Shown in pieces: positions 22,181 through 41,767 of a stretch of DNA of 64,000 nucleotides. The first letter of the stretch is position 1. Each line of letters starts with the position of its first letter. The stretch comes from a bacterium (GTDB lineage: Bacteria > Electryoneota > Electryoneia > Electryoneales > Electryoneaceae), in the NCBI GenBank assembly GCA_963675295.2, contig CAXXKJ010000001.1:114791-178790 (forward strand), written 5' to 3'. Both the position numbers and the translations under genes were made by a program. The notes under the pieces are model-generated. The model ran no database searches, had not been told where the DNA came from, and was given only the letters and a program-made list of their open reading frames with translations.

Positions 22181-24646
22181 ATGCGGATCAGATTGACTTC
22201 TTCATGGATCATCGTCACGCTTGCAGCGCTGCTGCTGATCGTGGCCGGCTGCGAACGCGAAAGCGATGTGACCAATCCGGCAACCTCGCCGGACGACGCC
22301 GACGTTTTTCTCGACGAGTTCGGTGACAATGTAACCTTCCAGGCGTTCGCTGGCTCGAAGCTGGATGCGCTCGACACTGACGCCTCGGTCGTGCATAGCG
22401 GCACACAATCCCTGATTATCACTGTCCCCGATGAGGGCAACGCCGCCGGAACCTTCGCCGGCGGGGCGTTTACCACCTCGATCGCACGTGACTTGAGCGG
22501 TTATGACGCCGTCACCTTCTGGGCGAAAGCCAGCACTCCGGCGACGCTGAACGTAGTCGGTCTTGGCAACGACAACACCGGCACCTCGTTGTACATGGCG
22601 GAGATGTACAACCTTGAGTTGACGACCTCCTGGACCAAGTTCATCGTTCCGATTCCGTTGCCGGAGAAACTGGAGGCGGAACAGGGGCTGTTCTACTTCG
22701 CCGAAGGGCCGGAGGACGGCCAGGGCTACCAGTTCTGGATTGATGATCTGCAGTTCGAAGCGATAGAGCTCAACACTCCGCAGCCGGATATCGGCACCGA
22801 GACGGTCGAAGCCGAGATCGGCGAAGAAATTGTCGTCGATATGGCGACCGTGACCTACAACATCGGTGGGAACGACTACATCCTCTGGGCGCAGCAGAAC
22901 TACTTCAGCTTCGCCTCGTCCAACACGAACGCGGTGGAAGTCGCGGAGGACGGCACGATTACCGCCGTTGGCCTCGGCACGGCGACAATCACGGCGGAAC
23001 TGGGGTCCGTTGATGCGGACGGCCAGATCACGGTCACCGTCGGCGAAGGTCCGGACCTGCCGGGTGAACCGGCACCGACTCCGACGCAGGACGCCGGAGA
23101 TGTCATCTCCATCTTCAGCAACGCATACACCAACGCCAGTGTCGACTCCTGGTCGGCTGACTGGGATGTGGCGGAGTATGCCGACCTGCAGATCGATGGC
23201 GACGATGTCAAGCAATACACTGACCTGGTGTACGCCGGAATCGACTTCTCCTCGGTGCCGATCAACGCCAGCGGGATGACCCATTTCTACATGAACCTGT
23301 GGACGCCGGTTACGGTGGATGCGTCTACCCAGTTCAAGATCAAGCTGGTCGATTTCGGCGCGGATGGGGTGTATCAGGGCGGCGACGACGTCGAATCCGA
23401 ATTGACCTTCACCACTACCAGCAGCCCGGCGCTGGTGTCCGGATCGTGGATCAAGTTCGACATTCCGCTGGTCAACTTCAGCGGCCTGGCCACGACTGAA
23501 CACGTCGCTCAGCTGATCATCTCCGGCGGGAATCTGCCGACGGTGTACGTGGACAACATCTTCTTCTACGACAGCGGCCAGATCATCACCGATCCCGAGC
23601 CGACCACACCGGCGCCAACCCCGACGCACGATGCCGGCGACGTCATCTCCCTGTTCAGTAATGCGTATGACGACGTGACCGTCGATACCTGGTCGGCCGA
23701 CTGGGATGAAGCTGAGCTGGAAGACGTGCAGATCGCCGGAAATGACACGAAGAAGTACACCGGCCTGACCGTCGCCGGAATCGAGTTCACATCGGAAACG
23801 ATTGACGCGTCCGAAATGACATACTTCCACATGGATTTCTGGACGCCGGACGCGACCTCGGATCCTGCCGCGTTCAAGATCAAGCTGGTCGATTTCGGTG
23901 CGGACGGTGCCTGGGGCGGCGATGATGACGTCGAGCACGAACTCACCTTTACCGCGAACACCGACCCGGCGCTGGAAACCACCAACTGGGTCAGCTTCGA
24001 CATTCCGTTGCAGGATTTCGCCGGCCTCACCACCACTGGCCACCTGGCGCAGTTGATCCTCTCCGGTGACCCGAACACGGTATACATCGACAACGTCTAT
24101 TTCCACGGCGGCGAAGTGATTCCGGATCCGGAACCAACCGAGGCTGCACCGGCACCGACCTACCCGGCGGCAAACGTGATCTCGCTGTTCTGCGATGAAT
24201 ACACGAACGTGCCCGTTTCCACCTGGTCGGCGGAGTGGGATGAGGCGTTCTTCGAAGATGTCCAGATCGCCGGCAACGACACGAAGAAGTATTCGATTTC
24301 CGTCTACGCCGGGATCGAGTTCCTCGATCCGACGATCGACGCGTCCGGGATGACGCACTTCCGGATGGACATCTGGACGCCGGACGATACAGCGGACCCG
24401 GCGATATTCAAAATCAAGCTGGTCGATTTCGGCGCGAACGGCGTGTGGTCGGGCGGTGACGACGTCGAGCATGAGCTCACCTACACCGCGTCCACCACGC
24501 CTGGACTGGTCACGGGATCGTGGATCACCTTCGATATCCCGCTGTCGGAGTTTACCGGGCTCGTGACAAGCGAACACATGGCTCAATTGGTTATCTCTGG
24601 GGACCTGAGTACGGTGTATGTCGACAACGTCCTCTTCCACAACTAG
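22181..24646 (+). CDS. surface lipoprotein: N-terminal CBM-like domain + Big_2 Ig-like domain + 3 CBM-like modules (glycan-binding protein candidate)
   Basis: Start at MRIRLTSS (RBS GGAGG). Lipobox LIVAGC. Big_2-like AVEVAEDGTITAVGLGTATITAE. Three module copies, each ending VY.DN..F. No T9SS tail. Confidence 0.85.
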   Translation: MRIRLTSSWIIVTLAALLLIVAGCERESDVTNPATSPDDADVFLDEFGDNVTFQAFAGSKLDALDTDASVVHSGTQSLIITVPDEGNAAGTFAGGAFTTSIARDLSGYDAVTFWAKASTPATLNVVGLGNDNTGTSLYMAEMYNLELTTSWTKFIVPIPLPEKLEAEQGLFYFAEGPEDGQGYQFWIDDLQFEAIELNTPQPDIGTETVEAEIGEEIVVDMATVTYNIGGNDYILWAQQNYFSFASSNTNAVEVAEDGTITAVGLGTATITAELGSVDADGQITVTVGEGPDLPGEPAPTPTQDAGDVISIFSNAYTNASVDSWSADWDVAEYADLQIDGDDVKQYTDLVYAGIDFSSVPINASGMTHFYMNLWTPVTVDASTQFKIKLVDFGADGVYQGGDDVESELTFTTTSSPALVSGSWIKFDIPLVNFSGLATTEHVAQLIISGGNLPTVYVDNIFFYDSGQIITDPEPTTPAPTPTHDAGDVISLFSNAYDDVTVDTWSADWDEAELEDVQIAGNDTKKYTGLTVAGIEFTSETIDASEMTYFHMDFWTPDATSDPAAFKIKLVDFGADGAWGGDDDVEHELTFTANTDPALETTNWVSFDIPLQDFAGLTTTGHLAQLILSGDPNTVYIDNVYFHGGEVIPDPEPTEAAPAPTYPAANVISLFCDEYTNVPVSTWSAEWDEAFFEDVQIAGNDTKKYSISVYAGIEFLDPTIDASGMTHFRMDIWTPDDTADPAIFKIKLVDFGANGVWSGGDDVEHELTYTASTTPGLVTGSWITFDIPLSEFTGLVTSEHMAQLVISGDLSTVYVDNVLFHN
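23069..24643 (+). repeat. three tandem CBM-like coding modules (C1 23069-23572, C2 23609-24109, C3 24143-24643)
   Basis: Same module signature, with PAPTPTQD / PAPTPTHD / AAPAPTYP linkers. Confidence 0.8.
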
Positions 24647-24663
24647 CAGAGGTTGACCCGGTC

Positions 24664-25902
24664 ATGGCCAAGCCGACGAATGGAAACGGGAAACGGTCGC
24701 GTGATGTGCTGACGCGGAACCGTCCCCTCGCGGAATCGGTGCTGCGTTTCATCTGGAAGGAAAAGCAGACCACGCGGGCGTACATCGCGAAGACGATGGA
24801 GTTGTCACGCTCGACAGCGTCCGAGATCGTGGACATGCTGCTGAAAACAGGCCTGATTGCAGAGGTCGGCGCGGGACGGTCGTCCGGCGGACGGAGGCCG
24901 ATTGTGCTCGAGTTTCAGGACAACGCGTGCAGCCTGCTCGGTGTCGATGTCGGCGCGACACACGTGTCCGTTGCCATGACCAACCTGCGCGGCAAGGTGC
25001 TGAAGTGGAAGGAAAAGCGCCACCCGGTACGCACCGACCCGACGGGCACCCGCCAGCTGGTGATCGACATGTGCGACGATATCGTCGAGTCGATGAAAGG
25101 CGTCGCCAAACCAGTCGTGCGGATCGGTGTCGCGGTGCCGAGCCCGGTTGATCCGTTGAACCCGGAATGGATCTCCGAGACCGTTATCCCGGCGTGGCAG
25201 GGCGAGAGTGGTCTAGCGGAGCTGCGGGAACGGTACGCGGTTCCGGTGCACATCGATAACGACGCGAACCTTGGCGCACTGGCCGAGATGTGGTGGGGCG
25301 CGGGACGGAATGTCAGCGACTTCGTTTACATCAAGATCGCACACGGTATCGGTGCCGGGTACATCCTCAACGGTCAGATCTACCGTGGCGCACGCGGTGT
25401 CGCCGGCGAAATGGGCCACCTGCCGATCGACCCGAGCGGCAGAAAATGTGTCTGCGGAATGCATGGCTGCCTGGCGACGTTCGTCAGCGCGCCGTCACTG
25501 GCCGAACGTGTCGTCGAGCTGCTGCCGCAGTATCCGAACAGCCTGCTCGGCCAGGTCGAACGGCGGATCTCGACCATCGTTGATGCCGCCCTGCAGGACG
25601 ATCCGCTTGCAAACCAGGTCGTCGCAGAAGTCTCGGACTACCTCAGCATTGCGATCACCGGCCTGTTCAACATGATCAACCCGAAGCTGGTCATTCTCGG
25701 CGGCGGATTGGCACGGCTGGACGAAAAACTGCTCAAGCCGATGCGGGAGAAGGTGCACAGCAGCATCCTTGTCAGCTCAGCAGCCGCCGACATTCGCTCC
25801 GGCGAACTCGGGTCGCAGACCATCGCGCTCGGCGCGGCCACCTTCGCGCTGGAAGCACTGATTACCGACCCTGAACTGTACCGAAACGGAGAGCACGGCT
25901 GA
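24664..25902 (+). CDS. ROK-family transcriptional regulator (NagC/XylR type)
   Basis: N-terminal winged HTH (TRAYIAKTMELSRSTASEIVDMLLKTGLI). ROK sugar-kinase fold with the CxCGxxGC zinc motif (CVCGMHGC). Confidence 0.9.
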   Translation: MAKPTNGNGKRSRDVLTRNRPLAESVLRFIWKEKQTTRAYIAKTMELSRSTASEIVDMLLKTGLIAEVGAGRSSGGRRPIVLEFQDNACSLLGVDVGATHVSVAMTNLRGKVLKWKEKRHPVRTDPTGTRQLVIDMCDDIVESMKGVAKPVVRIGVAVPSPVDPLNPEWISETVIPAWQGESGLAELRERYAVPVHIDNDANLGALAEMWWGAGRNVSDFVYIKIAHGIGAGYILNGQIYRGARGVAGEMGHLPIDPSGRKCVCGMHGCLATFVSAPSLAERVVELLPQYPNSLLGQVERRISTIVDAALQDDPLANQVVAEVSDYLSIAITGLFNMINPKLVILGGGLARLDEKLLKPMREKVHSSILVSSAAADIRSGELGSQTIALGAATFALEALITDPELYRNGEHG

Positions 25903-26717
25903 TGATTTCACGCTACGAGCGGCTGACGTTAACCCTGCTGATTGTAATGCTGATGAATACTACCGGCTGCACCACACCGACCGGCACCGACGGCGACACG
26001 TGGGAACTCGCGTGGCAGGACGAATTCGACGGCGACGCGGGTCAACTCCCGGACGCGTCCAAGTGGGGCTACGATATCGGCACCGACTGGGGCAACGCCC
26101 AGCTCGAGTGGGATACCGACCGGCCGGAGAATGTTTCGCTGGACGGCAACGGCAACCTCGCCATCACCGCCCGGAAGGAAAGCTACGAGGGGCAGAACTA
26201 CACCTCGGCGCGGATCGTCACCCGTGGCCTGTTCACGATGAACACCGGCCGTATCGAAGCACGGATCAAGCTGCCGATCGGCGCGGGTATCTGGCCCGCT
26301 TTCTGGCTGCTTGGCGCAAACATCAACGAAGTCAGCTGGCCGCAGTGCGGCGAGATTGACATCATGGAATACCGAGGGCAGGAGCCGAACATCGTACACG
26401 GCAGCCTGCACGGCCCGGGCTATTCCGCCGGGGACGCGTTCACCAACCGCTACGTGCTGAACAGCGGTACCTTCAACGACGATTTCCACACCTTCCGCGT
26501 GGACTGGTCGGATGACTACATCCGCTGGTTCATCGACGACATCCTGTACCAGACGATTACCATCGATCAGGTACGCGCGAAAGGCGAGTGGGTGTTCGAT
26601 CATCCCTTCTACATCATCCTGAACATCGCTGTCGGCGGTGGGTTTGTGGGACCGCCGAATGCCAGCACCGAGTTTCCGCAGACGATGCTGATCGACTGGG
26701 TGAGGGTGTACCAGTAA
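25902..26717 (+). CDS. GH16 endo-beta-1,3-glucanase (laminarinase-type) lipoprotein
   Basis: Catalytic motif GEIDIMEY. WPAFWLLG. N-terminal MNTTGC lipobox-like motif. TGATG overlap with the ROK gene. Confidence 0.9.
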   Translation: MISRYERLTLTLLIVMLMNTTGCTTPTGTDGDTWELAWQDEFDGDAGQLPDASKWGYDIGTDWGNAQLEWDTDRPENVSLDGNGNLAITARKESYEGQNYTSARIVTRGLFTMNTGRIEARIKLPIGAGIWPAFWLLGANINEVSWPQCGEIDIMEYRGQEPNIVHGSLHGPGYSAGDAFTNRYVLNSGTFNDDFHTFRVDWSDDYIRWFIDDILYQTITIDQVRAKGEWVFDHPFYIILNIAVGGGFVGPPNASTEFPQTMLIDWVRVYQ

Positions 26718-26753: not shown

Positions 26754-28202
26754 ATGGCCGCTGCCCAGTACACAACCGCACCCGAAGACCGCATTTCGAT
26801 GGGTCACCGCCTGATCTACGGGCTCGGCGGGTTTGTCAACAACCTGCTCGCCGCGGCCAGTGGCGGGATGATGATCGTGCTCAACCTCGGGCTCGGGATG
26901 AATCCGGCGCTGGTCGGGCTGCTTGGCGCACTGCCACGTCTCACCGACGCGCTCACCGATCCGTTGATGGGCTACATCTCCGATAACACCAGCACACGTT
27001 GGGGACGGCGCCGGCCTTACATCTTCTGGGGTGCCATCGCGGCGGGTATTATCTTCGCCCTCCTGTGGCAATTGCCACACGACAAGAGCGAAACCTTCTA
27101 TTTCGTCTGGTTCCTCGTCGGTTCCATCCTGTTCTACATGGGTTACACCGTGTTCGCGACGCCGTGGGTCGCGCTCGGCTACGAACTGACCCCCGATTAC
27201 CACGAACGCACCCGGCTGATGGGCACGCAGAACTTCATCAGCCAACTCGCGTATGTCGTGTCGCCGTGGTTCCTCTGGATCATGACCTACGAAGGCTTTT
27301 TCGAGGACCAGGTTACCGGCGCGGCGGGACTGGCGATCATCATCGCGGTGTTCACCATCGGCGTCGGTATCCTCCCGGCGATCATCCTGCGTGAACGGTT
27401 CAAGGAAGCGTCACTGAACGGTGAGACCAACGCGATCGCACCGAAGTCGATCCTCGCGAACCTGGTGGAATTCTTCAAGGGATTCGGCACCACGCTGAAG
27501 TCCGGCCCGTTCCTCAAGCTCGGCCTCGCCACCTTCCTCGTGTTCAATGGCTTCATCCTGATCTCGGCGTTCGCGTCGTACGTGATCATCTACTACGTCG
27601 CGGGCGGCGATCAGAACCTCGGCGCGAAGTATGCCGGTTACGCCGGGACTGTCGGCGCGGCGGGCACGTTCCTGATCATTCCACTCATCACCTGGCTGGC
27701 GACGAAGATTGGCAAACGCCGGGCGTTCTTCGTCTCGACCGGCCTCTCGATCATCGGTTACGCGCTCAAGTGGGTATGCTACACCCCGGAGAATCCGTGG
27801 CTGACCCTCGTCCCGGCGCCGTTCCTGTCCTTCAGCCTCGGCGGGCTGTTCACGCTGATGCCGTCGATGGTGGCGGACGTGGTCGATCTGGACGAGCTGA
27901 AAACGCACAAACGCCGCGAAGGGATGTACGGCTCGATCTTCTGGTGGGTGGTCAAGCTCGGCATGGCGGCGGCGCTGGCCGGCGGTGGCTACCTGTTGAA
28001 CTGGACCGGATTCGACGTCGAACTCGGCGGCAATCAGTCCGACCGCGCGCTCACCCTGATGCGCCTCGCCGACATGCTGATCCCGATTGTCACTTCACTG
28101 ATCGCGATCTGGGCGGTGTGGACGTTCCCGATCACCGAGGAGAAGGCGCACGAGGTCCGGATGGAACTCGAACGCAGACGTGGAAAACCCGGCGAAGCTT
28201 GA
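26754..28202 (+). CDS. glycoside-pentoside-hexuronide (GPH)/MFS family sugar:cation symporter
   Basis: 12-TM layout and the DPLMGYISDNTSTRWGRRRPYI signature of MelB/GPH transporters. Confidence 0.9.
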   Translation: MAAAQYTTAPEDRISMGHRLIYGLGGFVNNLLAAASGGMMIVLNLGLGMNPALVGLLGALPRLTDALTDPLMGYISDNTSTRWGRRRPYIFWGAIAAGIIFALLWQLPHDKSETFYFVWFLVGSILFYMGYTVFATPWVALGYELTPDYHERTRLMGTQNFISQLAYVVSPWFLWIMTYEGFFEDQVTGAAGLAIIIAVFTIGVGILPAIILRERFKEASLNGETNAIAPKSILANLVEFFKGFGTTLKSGPFLKLGLATFLVFNGFILISAFASYVIIYYVAGGDQNLGAKYAGYAGTVGAAGTFLIIPLITWLATKIGKRRAFFVSTGLSIIGYALKWVCYTPENPWLTLVPAPFLSFSLGGLFTLMPSMVADVVDLDELKTHKRREGMYGSIFWWVVKLGMAAALAGGGYLLNWTGFDVELGGNQSDRALTLMRLADMLIPIVTSLIAIWAVWTFPITEEKAHEVRMELERRRGKPGEA

Positions 28203-28298: not shown

Positions 28299-30515
28299 TT
28301 ACGCCATAAGCTCAAACTCCGCACCCAGATTCGCCGTCGAATCGCCACCGATCCAGACATCAAACCAGCCCGGTTCCGCTTTGAGCCGCATGTCGCGTCC
28401 GTAAAACGCGAGGTCTTCCCTACTCAACTCAAACCGCACCCGTTTCGTCTCGCCCGGCTGCAACCGGACACGCTGGAAACCCTTCAGCTCGCGCACCGGA
28501 CGTGTCACACTGCCGGCCCGATCCCGTACATACAACTGCACCACTTCGGTGCCTTCGCGGGTGCCGATGTTCGTCACCTCCGCCGATACTGCAACCGTCT
28601 CGCCCAGCATAATCTGATCCGACTCAACCCGGATCGCGTCATACCGGAAACGGGTATAGCTCAGCCCGTACCCGAATGGCCACATCGGTGACGGATCGAC
28701 ATCGAGATGGAACGACGTATTCCCGAACGAGTGCTGCGACGCACCCTGCTCGATCTCGTCAATGTGACGCACCGACTCCGGTGTCGCGGGACGGCCGGTG
28801 TTTTTCTGCGAATAATAGATCGGGATCTGGCCGGTGACGCGGGGGAACGTCACCGTCAGCTTCCCGACCGGTTCTTCGCGGCCAAACAGCAGGTCAACAA
28901 TCGCCGGGCCCGCCATCGTGCCCGGATGCCATGCGTACAGGATCGCATCCACCGACCCAGCGACATCTTGCAACGCCAATGGCCGGCCGGCCATCACGAC
29001 CAGCACCACCGGCGTGCCAACCTTCGCGAGCTCATGAATCAGCTCAGCCTGATTGCCCGGCAAGCCGATATCCGCACGTGAATGCGCTTCGCCGCTGAGG
29101 ATCGACTCTTCGCCGAGGAACAGCAGTACCACATCCGATTGCCGTGCAGCGGCAATCGCCTCGTCGAAGCCGTCCCGCGAACGGCTGCGAGTCGTCTCCA
29201 GCGCTCGAACATGGTTGATCGTGATCCGATCGCCCGCAACCTCGCGCAACGCCTGCAACGGGGTCTGGCTCAGCGCCGGGTCACCGTCAAAGACCCACGT
29301 GCCCAGCTGTTCGTAGCCATCGTCCGCGAGCGGACCAATCACCGCGACCGACTTGACCGCGTCGGGTGACAACGGCAGCAGCCAGTCCTGATTCTTCAGC
29401 AAGACACAGCTTTCCAGCGCTGCCTGTTTCGCCAGGCCCAACGCGTCCGGGCTGCCCGGCTTCGGCACATCAACCGGGATCGTAGTGCGTTCGTCGAACA
29501 GTCCGAGCGCAAATTTCACACGCAGGACATTGGCAACCATCGCGTCGATCTGGGCGATGGTCAATCGGCCTTCGTCAACCAGGTCCGCGAGATGGTCGGC
29601 GTAGGTCCGGCTCGCCATCTCCATGTCCACACCGGCGGACGCCGCCGCGAGGGCGGATGCCTTGTCGCCATCGGTCAGGCCGTGAACCGCCAACTGCGGG
29701 ATTGATTCCCAGTCGCTGACCACCATGCCGTTGTAGCCCCACTCCTCGCGCAGGATTTTGCGCAGCAGAAAATCGTTCGCACTGGCGGGGATACCGTCCA
29801 GGTCGCTGAACGAGGTCATGAAGGTTGCGACACCCGCGTCCGCCGCCGCCTTGAACGGTGGCAGGTGGACGTTGCGCAGCTCGTTTTCCGGGATGTTTGT
29901 CGTGTTGTAGTCGCGTCCGCTCTCGCTTGCACCATAGCCGGCGAAGTGCTTTGCGCACGCCGCGACTGAGGCCGGGTCAGACAGGTCATCACCCTGGAAG
30001 CCTTCGATCATCGCTTGTCCATACAACGCGGCCAGCCACGGGTCTTCACCGAACGTTTCGGCAACACGGCCCCAGCGTGGATCGCGGCCGATGTCCAGCA
30101 TCGGGGCGTAGGTCCAGTTGACACCGGCCGCGACCGCCTCGCGCGCGGCGATCCGCGCCGTGTCGCGCACGATGTCCGGGTTCCAGCTCGCCGCCAATCC
30201 GAGGGGGATTGGGAAGACGGTCTTGAAGCCGTGAATCACGTCGCGCCCGACCAGTAACGGAATCCCGAGCCGGCTGTCCTCACGCGCGATCCGTTGAAAC
30301 TCACGGATCTGTTCCGCGCCGACTTCGTTGAGAATGCCGCCGATTTCGCCCGCGGCAATCTGGCTGTTGAACACGTCCGCCTGCTCCGGTCCGGGCGTGT
30401 TCATCACGTTCAGCTGACCGATCTTCTCCGCCAGTGTCATCCGGCTGATCAGCTCCGCGATCCGTTGCTCCAGCGTGGGCGCGACTGGTGTAAGTGTATC
30501 TGGTTCCCGTGCCAC
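28299..30515 (-). CDS. bglX: GH3 beta-glucosidase (BglX-like)
   Basis: MTLAEKIGQLN, GRDVIHGF, VVSDW nucleophile region, C-terminal FnIII-like domain. Start set at the GTG (VAREPD) preceded by GGAG, which removes the overlap with the upstream gene. Confidence 0.9.
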   Translation of the reverse strand: MAREPDTLTPVAPTLEQRIAELISRMTLAEKIGQLNVMNTPGPEQADVFNSQIAAGEIGGILNEVGAEQIREFQRIAREDSRLGIPLLVGRDVIHGFKTVFPIPLGLAASWNPDIVRDTARIAAREAVAAGVNWTYAPMLDIGRDPRWGRVAETFGEDPWLAALYGQAMIEGFQGDDLSDPASVAACAKHFAGYGASESGRDYNTTNIPENELRNVHLPPFKAAADAGVATFMTSFSDLDGIPASANDFLLRKILREEWGYNGMVVSDWESIPQLAVHGLTDGDKASALAAASAGVDMEMASRTYADHLADLVDEGRLTIAQIDAMVANVLRVKFALGLFDERTTIPVDVPKPGSPDALGLAKQAALESCVLLKNQDWLLPLSPDAVKSVAVIGPLADDGYEQLGTWVFDGDPALSQTPLQALREVAGDRITINHVRALETTRSRSRDGFDEAIAAARQSDVVLLFLGEESILSGEAHSRADIGLPGNQAELIHELAKVGTPVVLVVMAGRPLALQDVAGSVDAILYAWHPGTMAGPAIVDLLFGREEPVGKLTVTFPRVTGQIPIYYSQKNTGRPATPESVRHIDEIEQGASQHSFGNTSFHLDVDPSPMWPFGYGLSYTRFRYDAIRVESDQIMLGETVAVSAEVTNIGTREGTEVVQLYVRDRAGSVTRPVRELKGFQRVRLQPGETKRVRFELSREDLAFYGRDMRLKAEPGWFDVWIGGDSTANLGAEFELMA

Positions 30516-30535
30516 AAATACTCCGTGCTGCTCGT

Positions 30536-33500
30536 CTAGTTTCCGATGGTGAGACTCAGGTACGTGCGAATCTCCCACTCGCTGCCCTGTGACAGGCCCG
30601 GTGTTTCGGTGTCGCAGGTTACATTGCCGCTGGCGTCAACGATCGTCGCCGGGCAATACCGCGGCGAATACTGGTCGAGTGACCGCCACGTAACCCGCAC
30701 GCCAAACCGTGTCTGCGGCTCGTCAAACCACTCCGGCATCCCGACGAACGTCGACACATCACCCACCAATTGCAGCGGATACGTCAGGTTGAAGTCCTTG
30801 TGGTAATCGTACGGACCCCAGTCATTCACTTTCGCGGACGCGATGAACTTGAACGAATCCAGAATCAACCGCACGTCGCCACCGTACCGTTCGACCAGCC
30901 GGGGATCATTGCCGTTCGGCTCGCCGGTGCCGACAAATACGTTGGTCACCAGTCCGAAGCCCGGCCACGCTTTCGACACCATCCGGGAATACACTTCCCA
31001 CAGGTCACGCGCGGGCGTGGCGCCCGGGAAGGCGAATGATGTAACTCCATCCTCAAGGATGCCGATCGCCGCGTCCTGCGTCGTCGGGTGATGCTTGAAG
31101 ACAAAGCCGAGGTTGCCGGCAAACGCGGCATCTTCGCGCAGGTCGTTGTCCCAGTCGTACATCCAGGTCGCCGGGGTTGGGTCATAGGTCAGCAGGATTT
31201 CGCCTGCGGTCGTCTCACGGTTGGCCCGCACCGCGAACGCGTCGTCGAGGATGTTGCGCGGACGTCCCGGAGTGGGCACATCGCCCGGGATCGGCCCGAC
31301 AATCGGCTTCTGCCAGAGGAAGTTCGGCGCGATGGTCCAGTTGCCGATCATGTAGGTGAAGCCGGTGATCACGTTGTTCTGGTTCCCGCTGCCGGAATCG
31401 GCCAGCCGCCAGCCGGTGAAGGTCTGCACCGCCGTCGGACCTCCATCTGCCACCAGCCCCATCGAGGCGGCCTGCAGGTACCAGTTCCAACGGCCATACG
31501 AGAACGTGAACTTGACCTTGCCGCCGAAAGTGTCTGTATCCTTGATCTCGTCCTGCAACACGGTGTAGTTGCCGGAAGACCCTTCGACGAACTGGAAGGA
31601 GTCGCCGATTCGTTCGCGCCCACCGACGATCCCACCGATCTGAATTCCGAACGGACCCTTTTCCGTCTCGAGCGCCAGGGTCACCTTCTCCGTCGAGGGG
31701 GACGGGATCGCGATGGAACTGACCGCCGCGTCACGCTGCTCGAGGTCGCGCTGGTATACTGCCGATGCCAGCACCGGGCCAATATCATACTGATACTTCG
31801 CCAGCACCGCCGGGTTCGCACCCCACCACAACTGCGGACCGAATGCCAACACCAGGTTGTTCAACGCACGCTTGCCAGCCACCTCGAAACCAACCGGCGC
31901 CTCACCGTTGTAGATGTCGATGTTCTCGCCGTAATTCGCCTCACGGTACAGGCCGAAGAAGTCGCCCTCATACCCCCAGTGATAATGCCCGGTGCGGTAG
32001 AACCCGTCCAGATTGAACCAGTGATCCTCCCAGTGGATGCTCGCCTGGTACAGTTTCACCCGCTCGACGTCGGTCAACTCTTTGGTGCCGGAGGTGGTTT
32101 GTACCGTCACCGGACGGCCGCGATTCTCGTAGAAGATCTCGTCGATCGGGTTGGTCGGCACGTTGCCGAGGATGTTAAGCGTCGCATATCCGGTTACGTT
32201 GTCCGCCGGAGTCGCCTCGAACGTGGTGTACACCGACTGCATGTGATCGAAGCCGAGGAACGCGGGGTAGGTATCGCTGGTCGACGACGGCTGGTCCGGT
32301 GTGCTGATGTTCGTCCCGCCGGTGCTGTACGTTTCCATATCGACCCGTAAGCCGCTCAACCGTACCCGGCGCAGGGTTTCCGTCTGTAGCGCGGCCTTGT
32401 CGGAACGCGCCTCGAGCGTCGCGCCGAGCGGATTGATATTCGCGAAATGCGCGTTGATCTCCGCCAGACCGACCTCCGGCGCGTACGGGTTCAGCTCATG
32501 CGCCTGCTTCAACGCATAGTACGCCGCGCGCGGATACAGCTGGTAAATCCCCGCGCTGTTCGGCATGCCCTTGGCGCAAATACCCCACCACTCCTCATTC
32601 ATGTTGTTTTCGCCCGGAATGAAGTCGTCGGGGTAGCCGTCGTTGGGCCAGGACGCGTTGATATCATGCACTTCCAGGTTGCTGGTCTGCTCGAATTTCC
32701 ACCAGCCGTCGCTGAACTGGAAAGTCATCCCGCCGATGGAGTTGTCCGCGAGGCCGTGCCCGGCGGCGTTCGCGTAAATCTCCCGCCACTGGCTGATCAG
32801 GTACCGTGCCTGCATCTGTTGATCTTCGCTCAACGTTTTCGCGTTGAACGCGTCCGAACCGAACTCGGTGAACACAATCGGCACACCCAGCTTCTCCTTG
32901 ACCACCTCAAATGCGTCACGGAAGGAATACCCGCGGTACATGTTGGTGCCGAAAATGTCGAGGTTGCCCGCCTCGGACGCGATCAGGTCGATGTACTGCA
33001 CGTCCCCGTTGGCGATGGCGACGGGACGCATGTCGTCGATGCCGTGAATCGCGTCGATGATCTCACCGTACAGGGAATAGAGGTAACGCGCGCGGGCGGT
33101 GTCACGTTCGCCTTCCGGCAACGCTTCGGTCTCGGCCGAGGACCACGTCAGCCCATAGTTGTTCTCGTTGCCGAGCAGCCACATCAGGATGCCGGGCGTG
33201 TCCCGATACTGTTCGACCAGGCCGGTGATCTCGTCCTTGAGCGAGGCACGGGTCAGCTCGTCCGAATAGTCTGTGCTCGGGATGTACAAGCCGTCAATCG
33301 TGACACCATACCGGCCCATCGGATGGTTCAGCACGGTGTAAATGCCGTAGGTCTCGTAAATGTACTGCACCCACTCGGGTGGGACACCGACATACTGCCG
33401 GATCACATTCACGCCCATGTTCTTCAGCAGCAGCATCTCACCGTGCAACGCCTCCCGGATCACCTCTTCCGGTTGATTCCACAAGGCGTAGTTGTAGTTG

Positions 33501-33718
33501 TCGCCGATCGGGATGTAGTCCCAGTTCATCCCGTTGATGATGAAGTCCTCACCGTTCACCTGCAGCCGTGACCCGCTGGCGTCATTCACCACCTGCACCC
33601 GGTCAACACCGGCCAGCGCCGGGAGGGCAACACCGAGGATCAGCAGTGCCAGCAACAGCAACAGGCTACGTCCACGCAATCCCGCTGCACGGTTCCGGTT
33701 CGCCGTAAGGATTCCCAT
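30536..33718 (-). CDS. secreted clan GH-A (TIM-barrel) glycosidase fused to a ~650-aa beta-strand-rich C-terminal domain of unknown function
   Basis: Signal peptide (LLLLLALLILGVALPALAG). WLLGNENNY (acid/base NE) and VFTEFGSD (nucleophile E). The remainder shows alternating aromatic/Gly-rich strand-like segments. Confidence 0.8.
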   Translation of the reverse strand: MGILTANRNRAAGLRGRSLLLLLALLILGVALPALAGVDRVQVVNDASGSRLQVNGEDFIINGMNWDYIPIGDNYNYALWNQPEEVIREALHGEMLLLKNMGVNVIRQYVGVPPEWVQYIYETYGIYTVLNHPMGRYGVTIDGLYIPSTDYSDELTRASLKDEITGLVEQYRDTPGILMWLLGNENNYGLTWSSAETEALPEGERDTARARYLYSLYGEIIDAIHGIDDMRPVAIANGDVQYIDLIASEAGNLDIFGTNMYRGYSFRDAFEVVKEKLGVPIVFTEFGSDAFNAKTLSEDQQMQARYLISQWREIYANAAGHGLADNSIGGMTFQFSDGWWKFEQTSNLEVHDINASWPNDGYPDDFIPGENNMNEEWWGICAKGMPNSAGIYQLYPRAAYYALKQAHELNPYAPEVGLAEINAHFANINPLGATLEARSDKAALQTETLRRVRLSGLRVDMETYSTGGTNISTPDQPSSTSDTYPAFLGFDHMQSVYTTFEATPADNVTGYATLNILGNVPTNPIDEIFYENRGRPVTVQTTSGTKELTDVERVKLYQASIHWEDHWFNLDGFYRTGHYHWGYEGDFFGLYREANYGENIDIYNGEAPVGFEVAGKRALNNLVLAFGPQLWWGANPAVLAKYQYDIGPVLASAVYQRDLEQRDAAVSSIAIPSPSTEKVTLALETEKGPFGIQIGGIVGGRERIGDSFQFVEGSSGNYTVLQDEIKDTDTFGGKVKFTFSYGRWNWYLQAASMGLVADGGPTAVQTFTGWRLADSGSGNQNNVITGFTYMIGNWTIAPNFLWQKPIVGPIPGDVPTPGRPRNILDDAFAVRANRETTAGEILLTYDPTPATWMYDWDNDLREDAAFAGNLGFVFKHHPTTQDAAIGILEDGVTSFAFPGATPARDLWEVYSRMVSKAWPGFGLVTNVFVGTGEPNGNDPRLVERYGGDVRLILDSFKFIASAKVNDWGPYDYHKDFNLTYPLQLVGDVSTFVGMPEWFDEPQTRFGVRVTWRSLDQYSPRYCPATIVDASGNVTCDTETPGLSQGSEWEIRTYLSLTIGN

Positions 33719-33817
33719 CGCATACTCCCAGCAAAATCGCCCACGAATCCCCGGCGCTGTTGACGCTTTCAACGTCACCTACCGCCCGGACTCGAGGCCG
33801 GCCACGTCCCCAACGGG

Positions 33818-34000: not shown

Positions 34001-37000
34001 TTACCGGACCAACATCACCTTCTGAGTCTGGTTGAGCTGACCGGGGACAGACGCGTGGATGAAGTACGCGCCACTGGCGAAATTCGTCGCGTCGAACGCC
34101 AGCTCGTGCGTCCCCGCCTGCGTATACCCATCCACCAGCCGCGCGACAGTCTGGCCGAGGGTGTTGACCACGGTGACCGTCAGGTCGGACGCTTCCGGCA
34201 GCGAGACACGCACCGTCGTCATCGCGTTGAACGGGTTCGGGTACGCTTCGTGCATCACAAAACCGGTCGGTACCGCGGCATCCGTCTGCTCATCCGCGAT
34301 CCAGCTGCCGCCACCTGCCGGCCAGTCAGCGTAGACCATGCCCGCGGCATCGGTCCCGTTGCTCAGCTTGGTGAAGCTGAAGGACTCGGTAAACAGCGGG
34401 TTGTTGACGTTCAGGCCGAGGTGGGCACGGAACTCGTGCGTTCCGGCGGGCGCGTTGCTGGGAATTTCCTGCGTCAGGCCGGTGACGGTCGCGTTGAAGA
34501 ACGGTGTCATCGTGAACGTCTGGTGGAACAATGGACCGAACACATTACCGTTTTGCAGCTCGACACTGGTCCAGAAGTCGACGCCCGGATAGCTCTGCGC
34601 GAGCGAACTCTGCAACGAGACCGTGTACACCAGCGTTCCGCCCGAGGCCGGGATCGTGGTCGAGGAGGTCGGGGTGACGTTAAACGTGACCGGCGAGGGA
34701 TTTCCGAGCGCGATGCTGTACATCGAGCGGCCGTGCGTGCCGGCAACCAGACGGCGCTCGCTGGCGATGAACTCGATGTCGAACACGGCGGACATTGGCA
34801 GGCCCTGGCCGAGCGCGGCCCAGGTGTCGCCTTCATTGGTGGTGAAGAAAACGCCGAAGTCGGTCCCGACGTAATACCGGCTCGGATCGTCCGGATCGAT
34901 GATGATATCGTTGACCGGACCTTCAGGAAGTTCACCGGCGCCGGTGCCGGAGACGGAGTACCAGGTCGCGCCGAGGTTGTCGCTGCGATAAACATGCGGC
35001 GTCGGGTCACTGACACGGTGTCCGGAGAAGGTGCAGAAAATCGTGTTCGGCTCGGTGGGGTGGAACGCCACGCGGCTGACCCACATCTCCGGCAGGGCGC
35101 TGTCGATCCGGGTCCAGTTGGAACCACCGTTCTGCGTGACCCAGACATTCGCGTCGTCCGTGCCGACCACGATGTAGTTTGGTTGTACCGCGCTGGCGGC
35201 AATGGTGGTGATGGTGCCGAAGGTCAGCGAGCCGGGATCATCGCCGTCGGTGAGATCGCCCGAGATCGTGTTCCAGTCGCTCCCCCGGTTGTTCGTGCGA
35301 TAAACGCGGTACGATCCGAAATACAGCCGGTCGTAATTGAACGGGTCGAAACAGAAAGGCGACATCCAGTTGCAGCGGTCGCTCCACCATTCGGAAATGC
35401 CGTAGAACGATGCGCCGCCGTTGGTGGACCGGGCCATGTTGCCGTTCTGCGATTCCGCGTAGGCATACCCGTTGTCACGTGGGTCGACAAGGCAGTAGAA
35501 CCCGTCCCCGCCGTAGATACGGTCCCAGTCACCTGTACCGCCGTTGACCGTCCGCATCGTGCCGTTGTCCTGCGTGCCGCCGAACAACCGTTCCGGGTGC
35601 GACGGGTCGTGGCAGATGGCGTAAAACTGTGTCGCGCCGAGGGAATTGAACTCGGTGGAGGTGCTCCCGCGATTCGTGGAACGGTCCAGACCGCCGTCGT
35701 GACCGGAGGTCACATGCGACGGGTTGTTCGGATCGATCCAGAAGGCGTGATGGTCGGCGTGGGCATTGTCAAACTCCGTCGACCAGGACGCGCCGCCGTC
35801 AAGGCTGCGAATGACGTCAACACCAGCGACGTAGATCACGTTCGGATTGCCCGGCTCGACAATGCTTTCGCCGAAGTACCAGCCGAAGGTCGAGTACAGG
35901 TTGTCGTCATAGCCGCCAATGTCGATGCTGGTCCACGTGTCGCCGCCGTTGTCGCTGCGCCAGCTGCCGTAGTACGGTGTGCTGCTGGAGCCGGGGTACG
36001 GTGTCCCCGAATGGAAGAGGTAGAGACGGTCCGGATTGTCCGGCGAGATGGCGAGCGCGCCACGACCGAGATTTGGATCGTTGCTCGGGATGCCGTTGGT
36101 CAGCTGCTGCCATGTGTCGCCGCCGTCCGTGCTGCGCCACACACCGCTGTCATCGCCGGCGACCTCGCGGGTCGAAGGCGTGCGGTAGCGTTCCCACATC
36201 ACCGCGTAGACGATATCCGGGTTCAGCTCGTTAATCTCGATGTCGATGCAGCCGGTGGTCTCGTTGATGTAATGAACCAGCTCCCACGTGTCGCCGCCAT
36301 CTTCCGTGCGGTACACGCCGCGCTCCGTGTTTGTCCCGAACAACTTTCCCGCGACCGCGACGAAGATCCGGTCGCTGTCAGTCGGGTCGACGACAATTCG
36401 CCCGATGTGATACGATTCCGGCAGACCCTTGTATGTCCAGGTGGCACCCGCATCTTCGGTCAGGTAAATGCCGACTCCCGGGTAGCTGTCGCCGGAAGCA
36501 TTCGCTTCGCCGGTCCCGAACCAGATCCGGTTGGGATCGTTGGGATCCATCGCCAACGCGCCCGCCGACTGAGCATAATCTTCGTCAAAGATTGGCGTGA
36601 AGTTCATCCCGTAGTCGTAGGACTTGAACACACCGCCGACCGCGCCGCCGGCGTACACGACGCCCGGGTTCGAGGGGTGCACCGCCAGAGCCGTGATGCG
36701 TCCGCCGATGTTCGTCGGACCTTCAAACAGCCAGGTTTCCTCCAACGGTGAGACCTGCTGCCGCATCACGTTGGCGCGCTCACGCCCCGCGCGCACGGCG
36801 TCCATGTTCAACGTGCCGTCCGGCCCGACACGCTGCGCCATGAACCAGTCGTTCGGTTCTTTCACCGGGCCGCGCAGCTCGGCTTTCATATCCTGCATCA
36901 GCGCCGGAGTCATCAGGTAGGGGGCTCGTTCTGTGGGCTGCGGCACAAACCAGATCAACAGCAGCAGTACCGAGGCCAGGAAAAATGCGGTGACGGGGTG

Positions 37001-37015
37001 GGTGAACGAGCGCAT
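34001..37015 (-). CDS. T9SS cargo: BNR/Asp-box repeat (sortilin/VPS10- or GH74-like) double beta-propeller + Ig-like domain + T9SS CTD
   Basis: At least 8 SxDxGxTW-type boxes (TEDAGATW, TEDGGDTW, STDGGDTW, SDNGGDTW, SLDGGASW, TQNGGSNW, SDNLGATW...). C-terminus AYPNPFNAMTT...SGAYFIHASV..QKVMLVR. Confidence 0.85.
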   Translation of the reverse strand: MRSFTHPVTAFFLASVLLLLIWFVPQPTERAPYLMTPALMQDMKAELRGPVKEPNDWFMAQRVGPDGTLNMDAVRAGRERANVMRQQVSPLEETWLFEGPTNIGGRITALAVHPSNPGVVYAGGAVGGVFKSYDYGMNFTPIFDEDYAQSAGALAMDPNDPNRIWFGTGEANASGDSYPGVGIYLTEDAGATWTYKGLPESYHIGRIVVDPTDSDRIFVAVAGKLFGTNTERGVYRTEDGGDTWELVHYINETTGCIDIEINELNPDIVYAVMWERYRTPSTREVAGDDSGVWRSTDGGDTWQQLTNGIPSNDPNLGRGALAISPDNPDRLYLFHSGTPYPGSSSTPYYGSWRSDNGGDTWTSIDIGGYDDNLYSTFGWYFGESIVEPGNPNVIYVAGVDVIRSLDGGASWSTEFDNAHADHHAFWIDPNNPSHVTSGHDGGLDRSTNRGSTSTEFNSLGATQFYAICHDPSHPERLFGGTQDNGTMRTVNGGTGDWDRIYGGDGFYCLVDPRDNGYAYAESQNGNMARSTNGGASFYGISEWWSDRCNWMSPFCFDPFNYDRLYFGSYRVYRTNNRGSDWNTISGDLTDGDDPGSLTFGTITTIAASAVQPNYIVVGTDDANVWVTQNGGSNWTRIDSALPEMWVSRVAFHPTEPNTIFCTFSGHRVSDPTPHVYRSDNLGATWYSVSGTGAGELPEGPVNDIIIDPDDPSRYYVGTDFGVFFTTNEGDTWAALGQGLPMSAVFDIEFIASERRLVAGTHGRSMYSIALGNPSPVTFNVTPTSSTTIPASGGTLVYTVSLQSSLAQSYPGVDFWTSVELQNGNVFGPLFHQTFTMTPFFNATVTGLTQEIPSNAPAGTHEFRAHLGLNVNNPLFTESFSFTKLSNGTDAAGMVYADWPAGGGSWIADEQTDAAVPTGFVMHEAYPNPFNAMTTVRVSLPEASDLTVTVVNTLGQTVARLVDGYTQAGTHELAFDATNFASGAYFIHASVPGQLNQTQKVMLVR

Positions 37016-37215
37016 GTGTCAGCTCCAACAGTTTGAGTTTCAGATCCAGGTGGCAGACGCACTCATGCCAATGTTTCAAGGTCATCTGGAATATAGGCGG
37101 CAGCATTCAGGGATTGTGCAGAATGGCTCAAGAAGTCGAAAAATCATCAAGGTGCGTGCCTCCACCTCTTCGCCCGTCATAGACTGACTGATTCCTGCCT
37201 CACTGTCCCAAGTCT

Positions 37216-38997
37216 TCATCTCACCAGCATCACTTTCTGCGTCTGGTCGAGCTGGCCGGGAACGCTTGCGTGAATGAAATACAGGCCGCTTGTCAAGGAC
37301 GATCCATCAAACACCATTGTGTGCCTGCCAGACTGGTGTAGACCGGACGAAAGCGCCGCAACCCGTTGGCCGGCAATGTTATACACTGTCACAGTCAGCT
37401 CGGCGGCTTCCGGCAACATGACGGTTAGCGTCGTCGTCGGATTGAACGGATTCGGCGAGGCGGGGCAGAAAGCGTAGTCCTGGACCTGATCCGCTGACTC
37501 GCCGGATTCCTGCTGCCCCGCAAGATCGTCACCAATCGCCCGGATGATGTTCTGTCCATCCGGGGAAACATGATTTCTCAGACGGAAGGTCGCGGATTCG
37601 ATCGCATGAATCGGGTAGGTGCCAGCCTGAACCGTGACATAGTACACCCCCGCCGGAGCGTCATCGGGAATCGTCCATGTGTCCGACACACTCGCCACGT
37701 GTTCGCCGGGAATCAGCTCCACTGAACGCAGGTTCACTGTGTCGATCTGAACCAGTCCCGGATAGCGGATCACGGTCCACAGATCAACGATGGTGTTGAA
37801 GTTCATTCGGTTGGATATGCTGGTGCGGTACTGGATGGTGCGCTCGAGATTGCCGGAAAAATAGGCTTCCTGTTGAACCCCCATCTCGATGGGATCTCCC
37901 TCGACCCATTCCCAGAAGACACACTCGCCCTCGGTGTTCCCGGCGACAAGGACATCCCAGTCGCCATCGCCGTCCATGTCCGTGGCGTCAACGTGCATCG
38001 GTCCCGGATACGCGCGGGCGATGTAGCGCTTGGTCCAGTTATTGTTGCCCAGATTCTCATACCAGCAGACGTAATCCTGCTGGAAGGAGTTGGCGACAAT
38101 GTCCATGTCGCCATCGAAATCCATATCCACCGCATCCAGGCTGCGTGGATAGATGATGTCACCATCGATCAGGTGCGGGTTCCAGCCGTTGCCCTGGCCG
38201 TCGTTTTCCCACCAGATAATCATGTCGGCGTAGCGCCCGGCGCTTACAATGTCGCAGTCGCCATCGTTGTCGATGTCGACACCGATTGCCGCACGCGACC
38301 CCTCCCAGTTTTCCGCGACGAGGTGTTCGACCCAGCCGTCCGCCGTCTGTTCGAACCAGCCGACCCTGTCAATCGAGCCGGATGAACCGATGAAATCAAG
38401 GTCGCCGTCGAGGTCGATGTCGGCGGGGTACACCCAACGCGCGCCGTTGATGGTGGCGACAATCTGGTTGTCGAAGTGTCCCGCGCCGTCGTTGATCGAA
38501 AGCGTGAACGCCTCGAGGCCGGCCGAGGCGCCAAGGACGTCGTTGTCGCCGTCTGCGTCGATGTCAACCGCATAAACACCCTTGGCGAGGGGCATGTCCA
38601 TCAGCAGGTGACGCGACCAGGGGTCGGTGCCACGATTTTCCCACCAGGCGAGTTGATTTGCGACAATCGCCGTCGCGAGGATGTCGCCGTCGCCGTCACC
38701 GTCAATATCGGCGGCATGAATCTGCCAGCCACCGGTAAAGCTGCTGTCGATAACGTGCATGGCGAAGGACGTTCCCAAGTTCTCGAACCAGGCCACCCTT
38801 CCGTCCAAACGGCTGACACACATCGCATCCATGTCGCCGTCAACGTCCAGGTCCATGGAATACACGCCGCGTACGCTATCGAATCCTTCGCCCAGCCGGT
38901 GAAAAATCCAGGCGGCATCAGCTGTCAACGTGGAGAGCACCAGGACAACGAGGAGAACAGCGATACGTAGCCCATCTGATTTCGATTCGTACTGCAT
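37216..38997 (-). CDS. T9SS cargo: FG-GAP/VCBS-type beta-propeller + Ig-like domain + T9SS CTD
   Basis: Seven D.D.DGD.D calcium-loop repeats (DLDVDGDMD, DIDGDGDGD, DIDADGDND...). C-terminus SPNPFNPTTT...SGLYFIHASV..QKVMLVR. Confidence 0.85.
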   Translation of the reverse strand: MQYESKSDGLRIAVLLVVLVLSTLTADAAWIFHRLGEGFDSVRGVYSMDLDVDGDMDAMCVSRLDGRVAWFENLGTSFAMHVIDSSFTGGWQIHAADIDGDGDGDILATAIVANQLAWWENRGTDPWSRHLLMDMPLAKGVYAVDIDADGDNDVLGASAGLEAFTLSINDGAGHFDNQIVATINGARWVYPADIDLDGDLDFIGSSGSIDRVGWFEQTADGWVEHLVAENWEGSRAAIGVDIDNDGDCDIVSAGRYADMIIWWENDGQGNGWNPHLIDGDIIYPRSLDAVDMDFDGDMDIVANSFQQDYVCWYENLGNNNWTKRYIARAYPGPMHVDATDMDGDGDWDVLVAGNTEGECVFWEWVEGDPIEMGVQQEAYFSGNLERTIQYRTSISNRMNFNTIVDLWTVIRYPGLVQIDTVNLRSVELIPGEHVASVSDTWTIPDDAPAGVYYVTVQAGTYPIHAIESATFRLRNHVSPDGQNIIRAIGDDLAGQQESGESADQVQDYAFCPASPNPFNPTTTLTVMLPEAAELTVTVYNIAGQRVAALSSGLHQSGRHTMVFDGSSLTSGLYFIHASVPGQLDQTQKVMLVR

Positions 38998-39367
38998 ACC
39001 AACCTCATTTCAAACGTGATACCATTCGATGCTTCAGACAAGCGTTCCGCAGCCGCATATGCCAGACCAGCAACCGCCGGAACCAGGCATCTGTAATCGT
39101 ACTTGCCGTGATTGGGGGAACGGCAACAATACGTTGCAATATCGGTTGATGTCATATGGAAAACGAGGACTGCCGGCGATTTTGTAAAATTTCTCAGAGC
39201 CCAACCGTCTCCACTATACTGCAAAAGGCGACGCCAAGACCGAAGTAATTTCTTTTCAAACATTTAGAATGTGTTTTGCCTCCGATCCATTGCATCGAAA
39301 CAGTTATGCTGACAGGATTCAGCGTGTTGGTTGACTCACATCCTCTTCACACAAATGCCCCATTCAC

Positions 39368-41740: not shown

Positions 41741-41767
41741 TTGTCCATCTCCTCGTTCTGATAGCGA

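Follow-up and report, generated by a model that had tools for sequence, protein, structure and literature searches.

The window analyzed here is a stretch of 64,000 nucleotides from a bacterium of the Electryoneota (family Electryoneaceae; GenBank assembly GCA_963675295.2, contig CAXXKJ010000001.1, positions 114,791 to 178,790), and all positions below are counted from its first letter. On its minus strand lies a gene (30536..33718) for a 1060-residue protein in which an N-terminal glycosidase domain is fused to a C-terminal domain that is predicted to be an outer-membrane-type β-barrel. We propose, with reasonable though not strong confidence, that this fusion is a glucanase-porin that serves as an outer-membrane gateway for laminarin oligosaccharides. 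The C-terminal domain would insert into the membrane and act as a channel, fragments of laminarin would be its substrate, and the enzyme would most likely stand on the periplasmic side. The fusion is thus probably a previously unrecognized route that brings laminarin into cells.

The reading frame, taken from the list of open reading frames and its translation, opens with an ATG at 33716-33718 and closes with a stop codon at 30536-30538. A GTG at 33778 is an alternative, longer start; we favored the ATG because a Shine-Dalgarno-like GGGAG (33725..33729, minus strand), read from the sequence, lies 6 nt upstream of it. Residues 1-36 (33611..33718, minus strand) form a Sec signal peptide with cleavage after ALA, between ...LPALA and GV, and comparable N-terminal signals were found in all homologs. 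An earlier note on this DNA, made from the letters alone, had described the frame as carrying a Sec signal and as lacking both a lipobox and the C-terminal tail of a type IX secretion system (T9SS) substrate. In the translation, the N-terminus reads MGILTANRNRAAGLRGRSLLLLLALLILGVALPALA followed by GV, which is a Sec-type signal without a lipobox cysteine, and Pfam detected no T9SS sorting tail (Por_Secre_tail) on the protein, so that this description stood. The peptides quoted in the note (WLLGNENNY, VFTEFGSD, GFEVAGKRALNNLVLAFGPQLWWG, VKFTFSYGRWNWYLQAASMG, ITGFTYMIGNWTIAPNFLWQ, GGDVRLILDSFKFIASAKVN and RFGVRVTWRSL) are all present verbatim, and the C-terminus reads ...YLSLTIGN.

A search of 5.8 billion protein clusters returned 5,646 homologs of the fusion protein at E<=1e-3. 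The best 120 were nearly all ~980-1105 aa long and 59-66% identical to it, and an alignment of 50 sequences gave a mean column identity of 66% across the whole length, with both halves conserved. The sources named for the homologs were Zixibacteria, Gemmatimonadota, Calditrichota, Ignavibacteriota, Marinimicrobia, Bacteroidota and Delongbacteria. The open reading frame is far beyond what chance would produce and is a real gene. Existing annotations describe the family as "glycosidase," "GH2 TIM barrel-domain protein" or "hypothetical protein." The sole Pfam match on the protein was a GH2_C-type TIM barrel (residues 89-308, E 6e-7), and searches of NCBIfam and of PDB sequences added marginal β-galactosidase matches to the same region. 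The last ~620 aa had no significant match in Pfam, NCBIfam or PDB sequences, the best being a non-significant 15-bit NCBIfam match. Pfam found no Plug or TonB_dep_Rec domain even at E<=1, and no TPR repeats, Autotransporter domain, or carbohydrate-binding module (CBM) or Ig families.

The barrel domain spans residues 452-1060 (30539..32365, minus strand) and was delimited from AlphaFold2 models, Foldseek matches, loop lengths measured by DSSP, and stand-alone homologs with a signal peptide and a terminal Phe. Residues 440-1060 (621 aa) were modeled alone from a diverse alignment (A2) that included relatives at 24-34% identity. The model was a single domain with a mean predicted local distance difference test score (pLDDT) of 83 and a predicted template modeling score (pTM) of 0.82, and it consisted of about 26 antiparallel strands of 7-19 residues (mostly 10-19) arranged as a hairpin meander. 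The count becomes 24 if the short, non-amphipathic hairpin 707-724 is taken as a loop element. By DSSP, the odd-to-even strand connections were 17, 36, 34, 7, 18, 7, 6, 26, 31, 26, 9, 11 and 30 residues long, and the even-to-odd connections were 2, 3, 6, 2, 2, 2, 2, 2, 21, 5, 2 and 10. In the model, this alternation of long loops and tight turns follows the pattern of outer-membrane proteins and places the N-terminus of the barrel on the tight-turn face, which is normally periplasmic.

Comparison of the barrel model with the PDB by Foldseek returned outer-membrane barrels for all of the top 50 matches (probability 1.00, E 2e-12 to 1e-8), and no soluble fold was among them. The matches included Campylobacter jejuni MOMP, Escherichia coli chitoporin (ChiP), OprD/Occ, FimD, MtrB, AlgE, OmpF, maltoporin LamB and the barrels of TonB-dependent transporters, the last of which resemble the fusion barrel at the level of the general fold only. 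The earlier note had read this half as a possible outer-membrane barrel and had named a soluble β-sandwich or propeller as the contrary outcome; structure prediction and the Foldseek comparison favored the barrel, and the soluble fold is not what came out. The model suggests that the barrel closes from strand 1 to strand 26 and that it would be inserted in the outer membrane. Amphipathicity of the strands was also computed and then dropped as evidence, as soluble sandwiches show the same alternation.

Conservation within the barrel is centered on its loops. When both clades of the family were compared, 25 of the 33 invariant columns lay outside the strands, although loops make up ~50% of the residues, and the conserved loop residues were rich in W, Y, F, H, D, N, E and R. 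The most conserved segment (31871..32002, minus strand; FYRTGHYHWGYEGDFFGLYREANYG...) runs from the end of strand 5 through the long third outward loop and strand 6, with invariant A2 columns F134, H141, W142, G146, D147 and G150. The strongest conserved motif, H-W-G-x-x-G-D-F-x-G-L, sits in that third loop, and the segment is a candidate channel-lining or constriction loop. Judged from the alignment, conservation of this kind would fit a selective sugar channel rather than a mere membrane anchor. The last long loop of the barrel carries two cysteines (YCP ... VTCD, residues 1019-1036, about 30611-30664), seen as YCP ... VCD in the consensus of the 50-sequence clade, and this pair may form a loop disulfide.

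Relatives of the barrel extend well beyond the fusion itself. An exhaustive HMMER search with the barrel half gave 467 clusters at 50% identity. Most matches of ~1000 aa or more had the barrel at the C-terminal end, some matches were ~570-660 aa long, and a few carried extra N-terminal modules. Among the last, P0244 (1218 aa) is composed of a CBM4_9 domain, the glycoside hydrolase (GH) domain and the barrel, and P0124 (1351 aa) has an N-terminal extension of ~380 aa without a Pfam match before its GH domain; both architectures bear on the membrane side of the enzyme. A homolog search seeded with P0189 recovered a clade whose named members come from Gammaproteobacteria and Desulfuromonadales. 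In this clade, fused proteins of ~1020 aa occur beside stand-alone barrels of ~587 aa, and the two forms share 40-46% identity. The stand-alone barrels have a signal peptide of their own and begin right at strand 1. Since such barrels are kept in laminarin operons without a passenger, the sequence comparisons indicate that the barrel probably has a function of its own, independent of the enzyme.

The same search bears on the C-terminal residue, a nonaromatic Asn that the earlier note had raised as a caveat to its own proposal. All 26 of the proteobacterial-type homologs examined, fused and stand-alone, end in Phe within a motif of the Y-x-Y-x-F type, which is the classical β-signal recognized by the β-barrel assembly machinery (BAM). 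The caveat was thus eased for the distant homologs and stands for the clade of the window protein, as described below. Members of that clade keep a conserved amphipathic last strand (EWEIRTYL), followed by a short variable tail that commonly reads ...IGM, and the alignment suggests that this clade added or changed 1-2 residues after the last barrel strand.

The N-terminal half (residues 37-429; 32432..33610, minus strand) is a clan GH-A (β/α)8 catalytic domain of GH158-like type, as assigned by Pfam, AlphaFold2, Foldseek and a profile search of the PDB. In the full-length AlphaFold2 model, residues ~41-430 alternate between strands and helices with a pLDDT of mostly 85-96. The top Foldseek matches in the PDB were GH158 endo-β-1,3-glucanases (9P25 and 9ORO, both GH158(Pro), and 6PAL, BuGH158; E~1e-10), and GH2 glucuronidases and galactosidases ranked next, the GH158 and GH2 matches together ranging from E 1e-10 to 1e-7. 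A profile of the family searched against PDB sequences also placed 6PAL first (E 7.8e-6 over ~190 residues). Two glutamates are invariant in the 50 sequences: Glu185 (codon 33164..33166, minus strand), the predicted acid/base, lies in an LGNENNYG motif aligned to GIGNEIELG of BuGH158, and Glu285 (codon 32864..32866, minus strand), the predicted nucleophile, lies in an FTEFG motif aligned to ITEWG. They are predicted to occupy the clan GH-A positions of the acid/base after strand 4 and of the nucleophile after strand 7. Both hallmarks of the clan, the TIM-barrel fold and the two catalytic glutamates, were therefore found, and the earlier note's assignment of a GH-A TIM barrel was borne out by the Pfam GH2_C match, the structural model, Foldseek and the motif alignment with BuGH158. 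The invariance of both glutamates makes it very probable that the domain is active, as a retaining glycosidase.

Kinship with GH158 appears distant. A true GH158 enzyme encoded in a related locus, L001 (451 aa; E 4.6e-90 to 9ORO), was 24% identical to the enzyme domain of the fusion over 161 aa (E 1e-5). Compared with GH158, the fusion domain has a conserved extra insert at residues ~335-395 (FQFSDGWWK...NMNEEWWGI). GH158 structures have a C-terminal eight-stranded Ig-like domain packed on the TIM barrel, and the enzymes close into a tunnel and act processively (PMC13195107). No Ig-like domain followed the TIM barrel in the models of the fusion, in which helices (398-451) lead into the strands of the barrel. 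Because of the weak profile score, the 24% identity to a true GH158 and the absent Ig-like domain, we call the enzyme GH158-like on sequence grounds and do not file it as a member of GH158; it is a probable new glycoside hydrolase family or subfamily.

Enzyme and barrel are joined by a linker helix (residues 430-451; 32366..32431, minus strand), delimited from DSSP and pLDDT in both models and from the conservation list. It begins with a conserved A437-R438-x-D440 patch, in which A437 and R438 are invariant in the 50 sequences, and continues into a variable half of lower confidence. The barrel-side part had a pLDDT of about 60 and 44 in the two models, and the pTM of the full-length model was only 0.51. 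These low values agree better with a flexible tether than with a helix packed into the pore.

The genes around the fusion fit a locus for β-glucan use. Downstream on the minus strand is a GH3 β-glucosidase (28299..30578; Pfam GH3 N, C and Fn3-like domains), whose exact start is uncertain; if the GTG at 30578 is used, its frame and the 3' end of the fusion gene share 43 nt, and the two are probably co-transcribed. With any plausible start, this GH3 has no signal peptide, and it looks cytoplasmic. The minus-strand pair converges on a plus-strand set of four genes. The first encodes a partner lipoprotein of about 820 aa (22181..24646), recognized from its N-terminus (signal ...LIVAG, then C-ERESD) and conserved in related loci. 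The window copy had no match in Pfam, NCBIfam or the PDB; homologs carry Big_2 or CBM30-like domains by Pfam, and the protein may be a glycan-binding partner or a lid of the barrel. It is followed by a ROK-family regulator (24520..25902, the limits of the open reading frame, the true start being probably further in; Pfam ROK E 2e-60), a GH16 laminarinase-type lipoprotein (25902..26717; assigned from Pfam GH16 and its N-terminus, signal ...NTTG, then C) and an MFS_2 (GPH-type) inner-membrane sugar importer (26754..28202; Pfam MFS_2 E 2e-70). The earlier note had described the locus as one without SusC, and neither SusC/D nor a TonB-dependent receptor was present in the window or in the annotated related loci L001, L003-L008, L069 and L089-L091.

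The genomic-context search that the earlier note had proposed was run as well, and it showed that the β-1,3-glucan gene set is conserved around the fusion. A scan of one genome per species found the barrel in at least 594 species, and its carriers belong to Gemmatimonadota, Ignavibacteriota, Calditrichota, Bacteroidota (several orders) and Proteobacteria. Neighborhoods were counted in 52 species loci with at least 18 kb of sequence: GH16 was present in 50, a homolog of the partner lipoprotein in 49, MFS_2 in 39, GH3 in 24 and ROK in 22. The gene directly downstream of the fusion encoded the partner-lipoprotein homolog in 28 of these loci and GH3 in 20. L001, on a metagenome contig of 5.8 Mb, combines a gene set of the window type with the true GH158 (16997-18352) and a GH149 β-1,3-oligosaccharide phosphorylase (18352-21879) that matches 6HQ6 at E 0. 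As L001 encodes a GH158 alongside a homolog of the fusion, the GH158-like domain does not simply stand in for GH158. This 451-aa and 1175-aa gene pair had been considered as a split form of the fusion; that idea was rejected, the two being the true GH158 and the cytoplasmic GH149 phosphorylase. A Melioribacteraceae genome and a Calditrichia genome carry the gene set together with GH17 and GH30. In the cultured Bacteroidota member Cloacibacterium rupense CGMCC 1.7656 (L069, fusion at 8729-11857), the order is fusion, Big_2/CBM30-like lipoprotein, GH16 lipoprotein, T9SS-tailed protein, Y_Y_Y/LuxR regulator and GH3, and this GH3, unlike that of the window, carries a signal peptide.

In Gammaproteobacteria, the operons of stand-alone barrels contain LacI, GH1, GH16, a large CBM4_9-GH16 protein, a type I secretion system and an Opp-type oligosaccharide ABC importer. 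The fused gene of this group is followed by a conserved lipoprotein of ~211 aa and a homolog of the L001 GH149 phosphorylase. The ~211-aa lipoprotein has no Pfam family (L008 13003-13629; L089 13092-13727; L090 13142-13789), shares the motifs CVLDDPDNP, FYLWATA, GENQYY and KRAYRSVLDNFF, and is a candidate second, unrelated partner lipoprotein. A division in which fused forms go with MFS importers and stand-alone barrels with ABC importers would have supported periplasmic trimming; it was rejected, as the gammaproteobacterial fused forms adjoin ABC importers. The closest genome match to the window protein, in L009 (CAZNKB010000014.1; 66% identity), has an FCB-type sequence ending and the same gene set and is labeled "uncultured Gammaproteobacteria," a label that is probably a binning or labeling error. 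Across very distant phyla, the link of the fusion or its barrel to β-1,3-glucan catabolism is conserved.

From these data we propose the following course of events. After Sec export, the C-terminal ~610 residues would enter the outer membrane as a barrel of ~26 strands, and the long, conserved loops, rich in aromatic and acidic residues, would fold into or over the lumen to give a channel specific for laminari-oligosaccharides. The N-terminal ~390 residues would work as a retaining clan GH-A glucanase, tied to strand 1 by the helix of ~22 residues and held beneath the pore on the periplasmic side, where it would cut incoming chains as they emerge. Cutting on arrival would keep the inward gradient steep and prevent back-diffusion. 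The short oligosaccharides would pass to the MFS_2 importer and the cytoplasmic GH3, and in relatives also to the GH149 phosphorylase. Capture of the polymer and its first cutting would fall to the partner lipoprotein and the GH16 lipoprotein. The fusion would in this way fill the functional slot that SusC/SusD holds in the laminarin loci of Bacteroidota. A bolder form of the mechanism, which we think rather unlikely, is a TonB-independent import coupled to hydrolysis, in which the glucanase would grip and cut the emerging chain and a Brownian ratchet would pull whole chains through without an energized transporter; together with its partner lipoprotein, the fusion would then replace SusCD in at least 594 species.

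Several observations weigh against the gateway proposal. With its length and high conservation, the even-to-odd turn at 846-866 hints that the strand parity may be imperfect, and the TM-scores of the Foldseek matches to solved barrels were low (0.2-0.4), none of these barrels being of equal size and shape. In the clade of the window protein, the last residue is aromatic in only 6 of 50 sequences and M in 24 of 50, and the protein itself ends in Asn. The β-1,3-glucan specificity of the fusion enzyme is suggested by gene neighborhood and distant homology only. The low TM-scores and the Asn, together with a closure that comes from the model, speak for a secreted soluble array of β-sandwiches or propellers, such as carbohydrate-binding modules, in place of the barrel. 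Such an array is very improbable in our judgment, given that no soluble fold appeared among the 50 best structural matches, that strands of 10-19 residues follow one another in a strict hairpin meander within one domain at a pTM of 0.82, that distant homologs end in the canonical Y-x-Y-x-F β-signal and that Pfam matched no CBM or Ig family. The barrel might also face the other way in function, as a polysaccharide secretion porin like PgaA, BcsC or AlgE whose hydrolase trims an exported β-glucan as PgaB, BcsZ or PslG would. PgaA and BcsC share the layout of an N-terminal periplasmic domain and a C-terminal barrel, AlgE is among the Foldseek matches, and polysaccharide export systems commonly include a periplasmic hydrolase. 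The loci, however, contain no linked synthase or glycosyltransferase and are made up of catabolic and importing neighbors (GH16, GH3, GH17, GH30, GH149, MFS_2 or ABC importers, ROK or LacI repressors), and Pfam found no TPR repeats, so that we give export hardly any weight.

The more serious question is the side on which the enzyme stands. It could be displayed at the surface, with helix 430-451 running through the lumen as in type Va autotransporters such as EstA and with the products entering through the same barrel or elsewhere; we consider this arrangement possible but doubtful. A helix directly before strand 1 is indeed what autotransporters have, and the N-terminal half of the linker is conserved, with A437 and R438 invariant. 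BuGH158, the nearest characterized enzyme, is reported to be a cell-surface enzyme in Bacteroides (PMC7157763). P0244 has a CBM4_9 domain before its enzyme, as is usual for enzymes that encounter the polymer outside the cell. On the other side, the barrel has about 26 strands rather than 12 and no Pfam autotransporter domain, passenger-free barrels are kept in laminarin operons, which gives the barrel a role of its own, the barrel-side linker and the full-length pTM are of low confidence, and the GH16 lipoprotein and the partner lipoprotein could already perform the surface steps. Export signals of the lipoproteins were considered as a guide to surface enzymes (C-DEE in the Cloacibacterium GH16, C-ERESD in the window lipoprotein and C-TTPTG in the window GH16) and did not settle the orientation. 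We therefore lean toward a periplasmic enzyme, and do so because the N-terminus of the barrel is on the tight-turn side, because other big barrels, among them LptD, BamA, the ushers, PgaA and BcsC, have their large N-terminal domains in the periplasm, and because the low-confidence linker and the pTM of 0.51 are as expected for a flexible tether.

Neither part of the fusion is new in kind, one being a clan GH-A glucanase and the other a proposed substrate channel of the outer membrane. For the barrel family there is no Pfam or NCBIfam model and no solved relative, and it would count as a new family of outer-membrane barrels. The literature searched, the coverage of which was incomplete, described neither a glycosidase-barrel fusion nor a comparable laminarin porin. 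Laminarin is one of the largest carbon fluxes of the ocean, and its bacterial uptake is at present explained by SusC/D or by other TonB-dependent transporters. Should the barrel prove to be the gateway, a whole route of glycan uptake would escape those metagenomic surveys whose markers are SusC/D or TonB-dependent receptors, and the fusion of an enzyme to a channel would be a simple system for studying how a polymer crosses the outer membrane without TonB energy. The idea can be tested directly in a cultured carrier of the fusion, Cloacibacterium rupense CGMCC 1.7656.

Elsewhere in the window are genes for five proteins with T9SS C-terminal sorting domains, at 34001-43882 (minus strand) and 19267-20727 (plus strand): a sortilin/BNR protein of 1004 aa, two FG-GAP proteins, a Kre9_KNH protein and a 486-aa protein. 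Because of these five genes, we conclude that the host organism has a T9SS, which fits the FCB group. A membrane redox module (8608-13526, minus strand) comprises an NrfD-like/cytochrome c3 fusion (659 aa), a Fer4_11 iron-sulfur protein, a NarI-like protein and a CCG-domain protein, and it resembles complexes of the Dsr/Hme/Qrc type. A multihaem cytochrome of 625 aa (58628-60505, minus strand) has MtrC/MtrF-like and cytochrome c7 matches.

Comparison with known systems places the fusion between several of them. With GH158 (BuGH158, 6PAL; GH158(Pro), 9ORO/9P25) it shares the clan GH-A fold, the matching glutamates of the NE and TE motifs and an occurrence in β-1,3-glucan loci; the similarity is distant, however, and the fusion has a helix and a barrel of ~610 aa where GH158 has its Ig-like domain. 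In type Va autotransporters such as EstA, a single chain likewise runs from an N-terminal enzyme through a helix to a C-terminal barrel; their barrel, however, has 12 strands and a Pfam family, neither of which holds for the fusion barrel, and the fusion barrel has passenger-free homologs. The export porins PgaA, BcsC and AlgE are linked to synthase or co-polymerase genes, whereas the neighbors of the fusion are catabolic or importing; PgaA and BcsC also carry an N-terminal TPR domain, which the fusion lacks. In strand number the barrel is close to LptD and MtrB (26 strands) and to the FimD/PapC ushers (24), FimD and MtrB being among the structural matches, and the fused forms are linked to a lipoprotein partner gene as LptD is to LptE. 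This likeness covers gene linkage and not a partner inside the barrel; cargo and gene context are unrelated, and the TM-scores were about 0.23-0.34.

The fusion occupies the same position as SusC/SusD in laminarin loci and shares their neighbors, namely lipoproteins of the surface and GH16 types and GH3, joined in Cloacibacterium by a Y_Y_Y/LuxR regulator; it presumably does the same job of taking up β-glucan fragments. SusC and other TonB-dependent transporters have a plug with a TonB box and a 22-strand barrel, whereas the N-terminal domain of the fusion is a TIM barrel. Since the fusion has no Pfam plug or TonB-dependent receptor domain and no SusD partner, energy coupling through TonB is not expected. 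As a precedent, the nearest in spirit is the GH17-MFS "transporter-CAZyme fusion" in the laminarin system of Formosa (PMC6246565), in which a β-1,3-glucan enzyme is likewise covalently joined to a transport protein; there the transporter is an MFS protein of the inner membrane, in contrast to the outer-membrane barrel proposed here, and the enzyme belongs to another family. The "porin" mentioned in the same paper is an unrelated protein tied to nitrogen metabolism (PMC6246565). As TonB-independent outer-membrane barrels within a dedicated glycan catabolic locus, LamB with MalS, and ChiP, come near to what we propose, and LamB and ChiP are among the structural matches. The fusion differs from LamB and ChiP in having about 26 strands rather than 16-18, no detectable sequence similarity, a covalently joined enzyme and, as its presumed substrate, β-1,3-glucan. 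In the mal system, the periplasmic endo-enzyme MalS shortens incoming chains for the inner-membrane importer. If the enzyme of the fusion does stand beneath its pore, the fusion would be a covalent analog of LamB and MalS.

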